Below are positions 1 through 64,000 of a DNA stretch of 64,000 nt, in pieces. Both the position numbers and the translations under genes were made by a program. The stretch comes from Candidatus Gottesmanbacteria bacterium (GTDB taxonomy: Bacteria > Patescibacteriota > Microgenomatia > UBA10105 > UBA927), in assembly GCA_963711735.1 (NCBI GenBank), contig CAVQFA010000005.1:135525-199524 (forward strand), given 5' to 3'. Numbering within the stretch: position 1 is the stretch's first letter; each line of letters starts with the position of its first letter. The notes beneath the pieces are model-generated. The model was given only the letters and a program-made list of their open reading frames with translations, did no database searches and had not been told where the DNA came from.

Positions 1-3000
1 CCGGATATACCGGTCCGACAGGAGCAACAGGTACAACAGGAGCAACCGGAGATTACGGGCCAACAGGCGTGACCGGTGTTACAGGTCAAGCAGGACCAAC
101 CGGAGCTACAGGGCAAGGTGGTCCCACAGGTGCAACCGGCGTAACCGGAATTCAAGGACCAACAGGTGTTACCGGTTCAACGGGAGCGACCGGACAGACT
201 GGTCCAACAGGTGCCACCGGTCCGACAGGTGAATATGGTCCTACTGGTGCAACAGGACAATTCGGTCCGACAGGATCAACAGGTGCAACCGGAACGATCG
301 GTCCGACAGGATCAACAGGTTCAACCGGTGCAACAGGATATACCGGTCCGACAGGTGCAACGGGATCAACCGGTGCAACCGGACAGTCCGGTCCGACAGG
401 ATCTACCGGATCTACGGGATATACGGGTCCGACAGGGGCAACAGGCGTGACGGGTGAAAAGGGACCAACCGGTTCAACAGGATCAACTGGTGCGACAGGT
501 GATCCGGGTCCGACAGGAGCGACAGGTCAAGCCGGTCCGACAGGTACAACCGGAGCGACTGGTCAATCCGGTCCAACCGGATCAACCGGCGCAACCGGAG
601 CGACTGGTCAATCCGGTCCAACCGGATCAACCGGCGCAACCGGAGCGACTGGTCAATCCGGTCCAACCGGATCAACCGGTGCAACGGGAAATGTCGGTCC
701 AACAGGTGCAACCGGTTCAACAGGAGCAACAGGAGACACCGGCCCAACCGGTGCGACCGGTGGTACAGGTGCACAGGGATCATCCGGTCCAACAGGTGCA
801 ACCGGTTCAACAGGAGAAACCGGACCAACAGGTACAACCGGTGCAACCGGTCAGTCGGGTCCAACCGGTGCAACCGGTCCGACAGGAGAGACTGGTCCGA
901 CAGGATCAACCGGTGCAACCGGTCCAACCGGTACACAAGGACCTACTGGTGCATCAGGTGCAACAGGTGTGCAAGGCCCGACAGGTGTTACAGGTGCAAC
1001 CGGAGAGCAAGGTCCTACAGGAGCAAGCGGAGCAACAGGTCAAGCTGGTCCAACCGGAGTAACAGGAGCAACAGGAGAAACCGGTCCAACAGGGGCAACT
1101 GGTGCAACGGGTGCGCAAGGTGCTTCAGGTCCAACCGGTGCAACCGGTCCAACTGGTCAAACAGGACCAACCGGATCTACCGGGGCAACTGGTGCTACAG
1201 GAGAACGCGGTCCTACGGGAGCAACAGGAGCAACAGGAGATATGGGTCCGACAGGTGCCACCGGACAAACAGGACCTACCGGTTCAACCGGTGCAACCGG
1301 ACAATCAGGTCCTACAGGTACTACGGGGGCAACGGGTGCAACTGGTGAATCCGGTCCGACTGGTTCAACCGGTGCAACCGGACAATCCGGCCCGACAGGT
1401 GCAACCGGTGCAACCGGACGAATCCGGACCTACCGGATCTACAGGATCAACAGGTTCTACAGGACAGACAGGTCCTACCGGTGCAACCGGATCGACAGGT
1501 GCTACAGGACAAACCGGTCCGACAGGTGCAACCGGGGCCACAGGAGAAATCGGTCCGACAGGAGCAACCGGTACAACCGGGGAAATTGGTCCGACAGGGG
1601 CAACTGGTTCAACCGGAGCAACAGGAGAAACCGGTCCGACAGGGGTAACTGGTTCAACCGGAGCAACAGGAGAAACCGGTCCGACAGGGGCAACTGGAGC
1701 AACAGGTGATCGTGGACCTACCGGTGTTACCGGAGCCACAGGAGAGACCGGTCCGACGGGTACAACCGGAGCAACAGGAGAGACCGGTCCGACAGGTGCA
1801 ACCGGAGCAACAGGAGAAACTGGTCCGACAGGTACAACCGGATCAACCGGAGCCACAGGAGAGACCGGTCCGACGGGTACAACCGGAGCCACAGGAGAAA
1901 CCGGTCCGACAGGAACGACCGGAGCAACAGGAGAAACCGGTCCGACAGGAACAACCGGAGCTACCGGTGAGTCAGGACCTACTGGTTCAACAGGTCCTAC
2001 AGGAGAAACAGGACCTACAGGAGCGACTGGTGCTACGGGTCCTACCGGAGAAACCGGTCCTACCGGAGCAACCGGAGCCACAGGAGAGACCGGTCCAACG
2101 GGTACAACCGGAGCGACAGGAGAAACTGGACCAACAGGAACAACCGGAGCAACCGGAGAATCCGGACCGACCGGTGCAACCGGTGCATCCGGGGAAACCG
2201 GTCCAACCGGAGCAACCGGAGCGACAGGTGCAATCTGGACCAACAGGTGCCACAGGCGCAACCGGACTTTCCGGACCAACAGGATCAACCGGTGCAACCG
2301 GTGAATCAGGACCAACAGGATCAACCGGTGCAACCGGTGAATCAGGACCAACAGGATCAACCGGTGCAACCGGTGAATCAGGACCTACAGGATCAACCGG
2401 TGCAACCGGAGAAACAGGACCAACAGGATCAACAGGTCCAACCGGAGAAACAGGACCAACAGGATCAACAGGTCCAACCGGAGCAACAGGACCAACAGGA
2501 TCAACCGGATCAACCGGAGCAACTGGTGAATCAGGACCTACAGGATCAACCGGTGCAACCGGAGCAATCCGGTCCGACCGGATCAACAGGTCCTACGGGT
2601 GAAACTGGACCTACAGGTTCAACCGGAGCAACAGGAGCAACAGGAGCGACTGGTCCAACCGGTGCAACTGGTGCAACCGGGCAGTCCGGTCCGACAGGAA
2701 CAACCGGAGCTACTGGTGAATCTGGACCCACAGGAGCAACTGGTTCAACAGGTGCAACAGGAGAGACTGGTCCAACCGGTGCAACCGGTGCAACCGGAGC
2801 AGTCCGGACCGACAGGAACAACCGGAGCAACTGGTGAATCTGGTCCAACAGGAGCAACTGGTGCAACAGGTGCAACAGGAGCAACCGGACCAACAGGATC
2901 AACAGGATCGCTACCGGTCCAACAGGAGAAACCGGACCAACAGGATCAACAGGAGCAACAGGAGCAACAGGACCTACCGGTGCAACAGGAGCAACTGGAG

Positions 3001-63500: not shown

Positions 63501-64000
63501 CAACCGGTCAACAAGGACCAACAGGAGCATCCGGTGCAACCGGAGAAACCGGACCAACAGGAGCTACCGGAGAAATTGGTCCGACTGGTTCTACTGGTTC
63601 AACCGGTGCCACAGGAATTCAGGGTCCAACCGGATCAACAGGTGCCACAGGTGAGTTAGGTCCGACTGGTTCTACCGGTTCAACCGGATCTACTGGTCTT
63701 CAGGGTCCAACAGGTTCAACAGGTTCCACTGGTGAAACAGGACCATCCGGAGCAACAGGTGAGTTAGGTCCAACCGGTTCTACTGGTGCAACCGGATCAA
63801 CAGGTCTTCAGGGTCCAACCGGATCAACAGGAGCCACAGGTGAAACAGGTCCGACAGGAGCAACGGGAGAAATCGGTCCGACAGGATCAACTGGTTCAAC
63901 CGGATCAACAGGAATTGCAGGTCCGACGGGAGCAACCGGTGCAACAGGAACAACCGGTCAACAAGGACCAACAGGAGCATCCGGTGCAACCGGAGAAACC
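60506..64000 (+). CDS. Fourth giant collagen-like fibre gene, 5' partial. It has a signal peptide, a ~320-aa non-collagen N-domain (60506..~61470) and GXT collagen repeats that run off the window end.
   Basis: I translated frame 2 by hand. It begins '[38 protein letters not shown]|[25 protein letters not shown]...' and continues '...[31 protein letters not shown]...'. A stop lies at 60488..60490 and the frame stays open to 64000. It is absent from the ORF track only because it has no in-window stop. Confidence 0.8.

Follow-up and report, generated by a model that had tools for sequence, protein, structure and literature searches.

Bacteria of the Patescibacteria group may hold a large share of bacterial diversity, and to our knowledge all cultivated members live attached to other microbes; as means of attachment, type IV pili are known, and Pam pili have recently been added to them. 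Surface stalks of another kind are known from BclA, Scl1/2, and the Pasteuria fibres, in which a Gly-X-Thr stalk, presumed to be glycosylated and triple-helical, carries a trimerising globular end at the C-terminus. In this work, a 64,000-nucleotide (nt) stretch of the 371,484-bp contig CAVQFA010000005.1 (assembly GCA_963711735.1, Candidatus Gottesmanbacteria bacterium), hereafter called the window, was analyzed, and four genes encoding fibre proteins with very long collagen-like stalks (fibres 1 to 4) were found in it; statements on gene presence below hold within the window. The region is interpreted as part of the chromosome of a Patescibacteria bacterium, probably a Microgenomatia-like one, encoding four paralogous trimeric surface fibres, assembled in the way proposed below, and we assign this reading a probability of about 0.7. 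The proposal of the initial annotation that these genes form a cellular surface-fibre system of a small-genome bacterium, and not a prophage, was borne out by the homologues in Patescibacteria, the lack of phage structural and packaging genes in the window, the housekeeping neighbours of a related gene, and the synteny with Pam-like genes.

Every single part of these proteins has precedents. BclA, Scl1/2, and the Pasteuria fibres share with the window proteins the Gly-X-Thr stalk projecting from the surface and the trimerising C-terminal end, but the window stalks are many times longer, have a transmembrane (TM) or signal-peptide anchor, are combined with a phage-type chaperone cassette, and belong to Patescibacteria; neither an N-terminal targeting motif of the BclA type nor a C1q-like domain was shown in the window proteins. 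According to PMC11923368, bacterial collagen polypeptides of up to ~6000 amino acids (aa) are present in databases, and TGA and TGP triplets are over-represented in them. The S74 and G2 chaperones are known from phage fibres (PMC4690869). In phage phi29 gp12, a beta-rich chaperone homologous by profile (E 3e-4) and by predicted fold, with the D-x-A-E motif, comes directly after the distal domain of the trimeric appendage; there, however, the chaperone is terminal, the stalk is a beta-helix, and the N-terminus is a virion adaptor, whereas the window fibres have a long sequence beyond the motif, a stalk of collagen, and an N-terminal membrane anchor. With the endosialidase and T5 pb1-type fibres, fibre 1 shares a Pfam match to S74 above the cut-off and the principle of a C-terminal chaperone for a trimeric fibre, but the S74 of fibre 1 is internal and lies downstream of the G2 site.

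Giant membrane proteins of 1392-4163 aa, proposed to form a fibrous surface and to serve in host attachment, were described in Vampirococcus lugosii (PMC8080830). The window proteins resemble such proteins of the candidate phyla radiation (CPR) as very large predicted surface proteins of a reduced genome, but the word “collagen” occurs 0 times in PMC8080830 and the likeness noted here is one of description. Fibre 2 additionally resembles MyRF (PMC8326128) and ToxR-type proteins in that one polypeptide unites a TM helix with a DNA-binding domain and with a trimerising chaperone derived from phages, but its chaperone is placed on the far extracellular side, ~3600 residues away. Finally, a “tail fibre-like protein” consistently co-localised with pam operons was reported by Troman et al. 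(bioRxiv 10.64898/2026.03.03.709456). Likewise, Pam-like genes adjoin fibre 4 and, in two other loci (L001 and L003), its relatives, here in Microgenomatia- and Saccharimonadia-like genomes; the preprint notes the co-localisation alone, with no collagen stalk, chaperone module, or function, and the Pam matches in the present loci are below cut-off. No description of collagen-like fibres from this group came up in full-text literature searches, some of which paired “collagen” with CPR or Patescibacteria names. What is new is the combination of uninterrupted Gly-X-Thr stalks on the micrometre scale, membrane anchors including a double helix-turn-helix (HTH) one, an internal G2 module with lectin and SH3b domains after it, and several paralogues in a single locus beside a Pam-like operon.

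The open reading frame (ORF) listing and a scan for GGN periodicity revealed four plus-strand genes with very long Gly-X-Y arrays, and the Pfam collagen family PF01391 was found on each of the four stalks with scores of 403-663 bits. Together the genes occupy 44,898 nt, or 70% of the window; the initial annotation was right about the large share, but its figure of about 48 kb was too high. Thr occupies the Y position in 74-81% of the triplets of all fibres, X is mainly Ala, Pro, or Ser, and charged residues are rare. The longest unbroken collagen run is 1419 aa, and 0-4 register breaks are present per whole array. Between the fibres, the collagen DNA is only ~70% identical, and the four genes are therefore not recent copies of one another. 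These results agree with the initial annotation on four paralogous but non-identical genes sharing one Gly-X-Thr vocabulary, and also on at least two proteins exceeding 3000 aa, namely the intact fibres 2 (4384 aa) and 3 (3270 aa). The stalks comprise at least 1419 aa in fibre 1, 2804 aa in fibre 2, 1910 aa in fibre 3, and at least 840 aa in fibre 4. If a triple helix is assumed, with 0.286 nm per residue, the predicted stalk lengths are ~0.41 um for the intact part of fibre 1, 0.80 um for fibre 2, 0.55 um for fibre 3, and at least 0.24 um for fibre 4, so the fibres may be longer than the cell itself.

The N-termini of the fibres differ, as had been stated initially, and their hydrophobic anchor segments are preceded by Lys or Arg. 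Fibre 2 begins with two HTH_17/MerR domains (aa 7-107; Pfam, E 3e-19), followed by a strongly hydrophobic TM helix (aa 202-220, nt 25613-25669) with KK before it and by the collagen array (aa 264-3067, nt 25799-34210; 4 register breaks). Within this array, at 31020..33867, a 261-bp (87-aa) unit is repeated 10.9 times with 93% identity, which implies a recent expansion and likely length variation, together with a risk of assembly error. In fibre 3, a basic N-terminus and a TM helix (aa 57-75) precede an N-domain of 300 aa with no Pfam and no PHROG match, and the collagen spans aa 379-2288 (nt 41404-47133; 1 register break). Fibre 4 starts with a signal-peptide-like sequence (..PLQAYA/DPG, the slash marking the predicted cut) and a conserved N-domain of ~280 aa (aa ~45-322), after which collagen without any register break runs from nt 61472 to the window end. 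The AlphaFold2 model of the fibre 4 N-domain (predicted local distance difference test score, pLDDT, 76) shows an Ig-like sandwich and a small knob, besides a stretch that was predicted poorly; its similarity is generic Ig-like only, with no PDB match better than E 0.04.

As for the C-terminal regions, that of fibre 4 lies outside the window, and the comparison concerns fibres 1-3. The tip region of fibre 1, which follows the collagen end at nt 14661, contains 2 GNVGIG-type motifs, and that of fibre 2 contains 5; fibre 3 has no such motifs and carries Gly_rich_2 (~nt 47629-48267) instead, with phrog_863 matching this fibre at 1e-28. Fibre 3 thus lacks the beta-helical repeats that the initial annotation had considered common to these C-termini, and only fibres 1 and 2 have them. 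The H-lectin-like domain, also proposed as common, was recognized in fibre 2 (PF09458, ~nt 37703-37897; 30.7 bits against a cut-off of 24) and in fibre 3 (~nt 49432-49626; 21.7 bits, under the same cut-off, with 36% identity to fibre 2 over 276 aa), and it is marginal in fibre 1, where Pfam gave no match and BLASTP against fibre 3 gave only E 6e-4. The prediction of S74 or SH3b in individual genes held: Pfam finds Peptidase_S74 (PF13884) in fibre 1 (~nt 16873-17025; 27.3 bits against a cut-off of 22) and SH3_3 in fibre 3 (~nt 49924-50070). Judged by eye, the catalytic Ser and Lys positions of the fibre 1 S74 look substituted, and a PDB sequence search with this domain produced no usable alignment. 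Downstream of S74, at ~17300..17650 (~aa 2335-2440), fibre 1 contains a second G2-like half-domain without the D-x-A-E motif; two G2 modules are also present in the relatives P0097 and P0313. Fibre 1 ends with ..VISPI (18421..18435) and fibre 2 with ..FISPI (38150..38164), that is, with the same last four residues after a Pro/Thr-rich tail or linker; the ISPI ending was found in none of the 120 best homologues.

The only C-terminal module robustly common to fibres 1-3 is a discrete domain of 130-165 aa containing the ALAGRVPV motif, which is present in 55 of the 120 best homologues. The motif pair was located at nt 16132 (D-Y-A-E) and nt 16330 (ALSGRVPV) in fibre 1, at nt 36407 (D-I-A-E) and nt 36602 (ALAGRVPV) in fibre 2, and at nt 48292 (D-L-A-E) and nt 48517 (ALAGRVPV) in fibre 3. 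The module, described initially as unknown, can be assigned on the grounds of a profile match to gp12, of PF11962, and of the predicted fold to a known family, the phage-type Peptidase_G2 intramolecular chaperone/autocleavage domain of the phi29 gp12 family. A profile of 38 module sequences searched against the PDB matched the phi29 pre-neck appendage gp12 (6qz9, 3gqh, and 3suc; E 3e-4), and in this alignment the D-x-A-E motif, in which each of D, A, and E shows at least 90% conservation across the 38 sequences, falls on D692-F-A-E695 of gp12. Peptidase_G2 (PF11962) was matched by 18 of the 38 sequences (best E 1.3e-10). For the AlphaFold2 model of the module (pLDDT 88.5), the top Foldseek matches in the PDB were 3suc and 3gqh (probability 1.0, TM-score 0.54-0.56), the next ones being beta-tulip capsid cement proteins; a phmmer search of the three whole C-terminal regions against the PDB gave nothing at E<=1.

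The predicted cleavage-site motifs are SS/DYAE in fibre 1, GA/DIAE in fibre 2, and GA/DLAE in fibre 3. The structure 3gqh, a cleaved C-terminal fragment of gp12, starts at the aligned D-x-A-E position, and the chain of 3suc reads DFAQYF at the motif, which we take to be the uncleaved E695Q pre-mature form of gp12. The last residue of the mature gp12* is 691 (PMC6542822). By analogy with the bond between S691 and D692 of phi29 gp12, self-cleavage at D-x-A-E is probable in the window fibres.

The distribution of the module among viruses was assessed in IMG/VR, where a scan with a 7-sequence alignment found it in 143 loci; a scan with a single module sequence found nothing. In 80 of 80 loci examined, the viral ORFs stop 62-71 aa past the ALxGRVP / PGVAM[RK]AT motif. 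Of 54 modules in cellular relatives, 53 are internal, in a set biased by a query that included the downstream region. To judge from the aligned sequences, the window fibres carry a G2 chaperone of the phage type whose cleavage site looks intact and whose position is not that of phage proteins.

The following assembly is proposed. The chains would be exported N-terminus first in a Sec-dependent manner, fibres 2 and 3 being held in the membrane by an uncleaved TM helix and fibre 4, with its Ig-like N-domain, starting from a cleavable signal peptide. The C-terminal Peptidase_G2 chaperone, accompanied in fibre 1 by an S74-type one, would then trimerise the chains and nucleate folding, and the Gly-X-Thr triple helix would zip from the C- to the N-terminus, towards the membrane. 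PMC11923368 states that animal collagens fold in the C to N direction from a trimerisation nucleus, and that in bacterial collagens Thr is common at Y and is thought to be stabilised by glycosylation. O-glycosylation of Thr may possibly stabilise the helix here as well, and the nearby PMT_2/TPR enzyme would be a candidate for this step. Autocleavage at D-x-A-E would take place as in phi29 gp12; in tail fibres, intramolecular chaperones free themselves once the trimer has folded (PMC4690869). The region preceding G2 (GNVGIG repeats in fibres 1 and 2, Gly_rich_2 in fibre 3) would become the mature distal tip, and the 585-767 aa from the cleavage site to the C-terminus, with G2, a coiled-coil-like segment, the H-type lectin, and SH3b, would either leave the fibre or stay attached to it by non-covalent contacts. 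Glycans or peptidoglycan would be recognized by the lectin and SH3b domains, and pili would work together with the fibres.

Some of the data weigh against this scheme. Taken singly, the three window modules are under the Pfam Peptidase_G2 threshold, and it is the family profile, together with the predicted fold, that places them in the family. In the window fibres, 520-701 aa, including the lectin and SH3b domains, extend beyond the ALxGRVP motif; G2 is not C-terminal, and the “cleave and discard” rule of phi29 may therefore not apply. Moreover, if G2 does cleave, the lectin and SH3b domains behind the idea of an adhesin would be cut from the fibre. The array lengths may also be wrong, the sequence being a metagenome assembly with near-perfect repeats.

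As regards function, the initial annotation had proposed an adhesin system for host attachment. The cellular envelope fibre part of this proposal stands, and the adhesin role is something that we infer: the fibres would most likely serve to catch a host cell from a distance or to attach to its surface, and we give this function roughly an even chance. A non-adhesive role, in which the fibres form a glycosylated hair-like nap or spacer comparable to the BclA nap of the Bacillus exosporium and provide protection, hydrophobicity, or spacing, would suit the Gly-X-Thr chemistry of BclA-type naps and stalks nearly without charged residues; G2 cleavage, if real, would remove the lectin and SH3b domains, and four paralogues differing in length could form a layered coat. 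We nevertheless regard a nap as unlikely, since the tip regions vary between the paralogues as they do in receptor-binding proteins, the proteins contain lectin and SH3b domains, a coat would hardly need fibres several times as long as the cell is wide, and the gene of fibre 4 is linked to an operon for pili that have been implicated in contact with hosts.

The double-HTH anchor of fibre 2 suggests yet another function. An exhaustive search with aa 1-270 of fibre 2 found 1245 cluster representatives at E<=1e-3; a word-indexed homology search with the fibre 2 N-terminus found nothing at E<=1e-5. Among the best 150 of the 1245 representatives, 43 proteins are at least 1000 aa long, and the TM helix is located at aa 129-220 in 40 of these 43. 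The G2 module is present in 12 of the best 150 and collagen repeats in 4, and a relative of 1303 aa (P0007) shows the whole fibre 2 plan with a collagen stalk of 216 aa. The anchor of two HTH domains and a TM helix is thus, by the evidence of these homologues, a family trait and not peculiar to fibre 2. Two giant Patescibacteria proteins of this set (P0395, 2790 aa; P0251, 2149 aa) are publicly named “MerR family transcriptional regulator” or “helix-turn-helix domain-containing protein”; the annotation reflects the first 100 residues only.

Fibre 2 and its relatives with this anchor could primarily be tethered regulators of the ToxR/CadC type, with the ectodomain as a sensor and adhesion as a secondary property. 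In fibre 2, a single TM helix separates the ectodomain from the two HTH_17/MerR domains, which are placed in the cytoplasm, the module is as widespread as described above, with the TM helix right after the HTH domains in nearly all of the large proteins, and a separate HTH_17 gene is located directly upstream of fibre 3 and of fibre 4. On the other hand, a signal path along a 0.8-um rod would be required, HTH_17 could equally be a cytoplasmic docking or retention module, and fibres 3 and 4 work without a fused HTH, which makes a primarily regulatory role distinctly unlikely. A broader conjecture is more doubtful still, namely that proteins with two HTH domains, a TM helix, and a giant ectodomain constitute a large unrecognised Patescibacteria family of contact-sensing tethered DNA-binding fibres, in which a sub-micrometre collagen or beta-fibre would probe the surroundings or a host cell, and the state of the fibre (tension, binding, or G2 cleavage) would be conveyed to cytoplasmic HTH domains that would bind the nearby nucleoid and switch an episymbiotic programme.

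In fibre 1, the collagen array spans 1..14661 and the C-terminal region stops at 18435. The initial annotation had considered a protein of more than 6000 aa encoded by 1..18435 if this were a single gene; as sequenced, it is not one ORF and is open only in 10318..18435. Stops are present in all three frames before 10315, the collagen frame switches at least 44 times in 1..10440, and the GGN periodicity there moves among all three frames. A Viterbi parse against a 9-nt Gly period placed 58 insertions of a single base and 6 deletions in 1..10440, where only 3 of the 2308 Gly sites were mismatched. In the remaining four arrays (~20.7 kb), the same parse found 0 insertions, and the sole “deletions” were the in-frame register breaks. 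The first ATG of the open frame (11119) is within the repeats, and a protein starting from it would have no export signal; the fibre 1 gene therefore extends upstream of 10318.

It is improbable, in our opinion, that 1..10440 is a genuine, very young pseudogene in decay and not a miscalled intact gene. As sequenced, this part has no open frame, and the other 54 kb, including 8.4 kb of similar fibre 2 repeats, are without frameshifts, so sequencing errors would need to be local. However, natural decay is expected to produce substitutions far in excess of indels, with deletions favoured, and here 64 indels stand against only 3 substitutions at the 2308 constrained Gly positions, with a 58:6 bias to one-base insertions. 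Since indels, mostly insertions, dominate and the glycine codons are untouched, the frame breaks most likely come from consensus error and not from decay. The out-of-frame string GGNGCA[AG]TC, which corresponds to GGNGA[AG]TC of the intact repeat, occurs 13 times in 1..10440 and 0-1 times elsewhere, and this recurrence looks like a systematic base-calling or consensus error restricted to 1..10440. Errors linked to GANTC methylation were considered as the cause of the frameshifts and rejected: intact GANTC sites are equally frequent in 1-10440 and elsewhere, so such methylation is at best a partial cause. Very probably, therefore, 1..18435 is a single real gene that exceeds 6100 codons, and the errors in its sequence are local.

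As for the origin of the fibres, the fibre 2 C-terminus has 522 cellular homologues; the named ones are largely from Patescibacteria metagenome-assembled genomes (MAGs), namely Daviesbacteria, Pacebacteria, Levybacteria, Parcubacteria, and Moranbacteria, while DPANN archaea, Margulisbacteria, and Lindowbacteria account for a few. MAGs of Gottesmanbacteria, Woesebacteria, and Saccharibacteria also contain homologues of the C-terminal cassette or of the fibre 4 N-domain. The fibre 4 N-domain has 189 homologues, the best of them in Gottesmanbacteria (66%) and Moranbacteria; many are labelled partial or come from contigs of a few kb, and one is already named “collagen-like protein, partial”. In species-representative genomes, this domain heads proteins of 900-3200 aa with various stalks, among which only the closest relative (L001, 67% identical) has a collagen stalk. 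The closest relatives of the fibre 4 locus, L001 (CAZQGM010000003.1), L005, and L006, are labelled “uncultured Gammaproteobacteria bacterium”, which is probably wrong. In a complete 1.19-Mb Saccharibacteria chromosome, the gene of a relative is surrounded by housekeeping genes. A tblastn search with the fibre 2 C-terminus against 50,697 GenBank phage records gave no match.

In the window itself, Pfam and PHROGs scans of the non-fibre ORFs taken as genes (short or overlapping ORFs judged spurious were set aside) found no capsid, portal, terminase, tail, or integrase gene, in agreement with what had been noted initially for the first three; the families found were pilin-like, PMT_2 with TPR, LytR_C, TrmB, HTH_17, and CarboxypepD_reg. 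It is highly improbable that the four genes encode the tail fibres of a phage, be it one that is integrated, one that is degraded, or one with a very large genome: although S74, Peptidase_G2, and Gly_rich_2 are typical of tail fibres, PHROG tail-fibre families match fibres 1 and 3, and the G2 module is common in viral contigs, the ORFs scanned in the 64 kb include no capsid, portal, terminase, tail-tube, integrase, or lysis family, the N-termini are TM helices or signal peptides instead of virion-attachment domains, the intervening genes encode pilins, a glycosyltransferase, LytR_C, TrmB, and a Pam-like operon, the fibre 2 C-terminus has no counterpart in the phage records, G2 is internal here and terminal in phages, and the gene of a relative sits among housekeeping genes.

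The fibre genes and the genes located between them are listed in Table 1.

Table 1. Fibre genes and other features of the 64-kb window (positions in nt; assignments from the ORF listing and family searches).
Feature	Position	Strand	Description
Fibre 1, 5' part	1..10440	+	Gly-X-Thr collagen coding, frame broken ~64 times; N-terminus upstream of the window
Fibre 1, open frame	10318..18435	+	2705 codons; collagen to nt 14661, then tip, G2, S74, G2-like half-domain, tail
Pilin-like trio	18485..21946	-	Three genes, convergent with fibre 1
134-aa TM protein	22084..22488	+	
PMT_2 (GT-C glycosyltransferase) and TPR protein	22520..24337	-	Pfam assignment
Fibre 2	25010..38164	+	4384 aa, intact; two HTH_17, TM, collagen, tip, G2, H_lectin, tail
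HTH_17 multi-TM protein	38381..40273	+	630 aa; HTH_17/excisionase-like N-terminus, ~9 TM segments
Fibre 3	40270..50082	+	3270 aa, intact; TM, N-domain, collagen, Gly_rich_2, G2, H_lectin, SH3_3
LytR_C protein	50165..50932	-	Pfam assignment
Pam-pilus-like operon	55282..59577	-	Four genes: pilin-like, chaperone-like, pilin-like, chaperone-like
141-aa protein and 109-aa HTH_17 protein	59685..60442	-	Divergent from fibre 4, 63 bp between starts
Fibre 4, 5' part	60506..64000	+	At least 1164 aa, ATG at 60506, runs off the window end

The operon preceding fibre 4 consists of two paralogue pairs: the genes 58483..59577 and 56253..57371 encode pilin-like secreted proteins of ~370 aa, and 57479..58459 and 55282..56223 encode chaperone-like proteins of ~320 aa, in which a signal peptide is combined with a TM helix at the C-terminus. 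The NCBIfam family CPR_Pam_pilin_C (NF058581) was found on both pilin-like genes with 28-29 bits, under its cut-off of 55, and PamT (NF058579) matched the operon with 25 bits against a cut-off of 240. The architecture of the operon matches that described for the PamA/B pilins and the PapD-like chaperones PamC/D (bioRxiv 10.64898/2026.03.03.709456). A reading of the operon as a Gram-positive WxL locus, based on a weak WxLIP_PGBD match, was replaced after the NCBIfam matches and the Pam preprint. Pam-like genes are syntenic with the fibre 4 relatives in L001 and L003, that is, in at least two other lineages: L001 keeps the block of Pam-like genes, 141-aa protein, HTH_17 protein, and fibre, and in L003 a Pam-like set precedes the fibre homologue. 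The 141-aa protein is PIN-like by eye and has no family match; together with the HTH_17 protein it may constitute a toxin-antitoxin pair or a regulator. The same pair is located beside the fibre in L001 (9078..9917) and is also present in L006 (~16373..17129).

The initial annotation had also described a PilV/W/X-like minor-pilin operon convergent to fibre 1. Prepilin-like genes are indeed present in this position, but Pfam and NCBIfam scans gave no match to PilV, PilW, or PilX in the three genes; their best specific matches, GspJ, ComGF, and ComGE, are weak and far under the cut-offs. The gene 19873..20496 has the prepilin motif GFTLVE, with N_methyl above the Pfam cut-off, in 20480..21946 N_methyl is weak and under the cut-off and is accompanied by CarboxypepD_reg, and 18485..19876 shows a hydrophobic N-terminus only, with no N_methyl motif. 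The products can be assigned only as putative prepilin-like proteins. The association of this operon with the fibres, which had been suggested by their co-location, could not be upheld, no link between them being demonstrable, and the Pam-like operon, which the initial annotation had not recognized, is the more relevant neighbour.

The PMT_2/TPR protein is a speculative candidate for an O-glycosyltransferase acting on the Thr-rich fibres or on pilins. The fusion of PMT_2 to TPR is the architecture of the eukaryotic TMTC-type protein O-mannosyltransferases. No homologue of this protein was found next to the fibre relatives in loci L001-L010, and its connection with the fibres therefore stays speculative. 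In the HTH_17 multi-TM protein encoded upstream of fibre 3, an extracytoplasmic domain of ~230 aa separates the predicted TM segments from a last one; the stop codon of this gene and the start codon of fibre 3 overlap (ATGA), which suggests translational coupling. LytR_C-type genes recur beside fibre-like genes in L002, L003, and L006, and in the same three loci the tblastn matches of the 134-aa TM protein coincide with those of the LytR_C gene. Upstream of fibre 2, a 670-bp AT-rich (~39% GC) non-coding sequence (24338..25009) is the largest intergenic gap noticed; it is a candidate regulatory region, in which a sigma-70-type scan gave results at chance level. Promoter and terminator scans likewise gave counts at chance level, and searches for RNA genes found no tRNA and no Rfam family.

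The locus suggests that, in addition to the two kinds of pili, Patescibacteria have a third attachment device, namely membrane-anchored collagen-like tethers, perhaps longer than the cell. Genes of this kind are routinely truncated at contig ends or mis-annotated, as in the case of the giant relatives named MerR regulators. If the interpretation is true, the stalks would be among the longest uninterrupted collagen triple helices known to us and would offer a hydroxyproline-free Gly-X-Thr model for collagen folding. The fibres would also be a clear case of cells reusing the receptor-binding hardware of phages, and their tip domains, H-lectin, and SH3b would be candidates for studies of host recognition.

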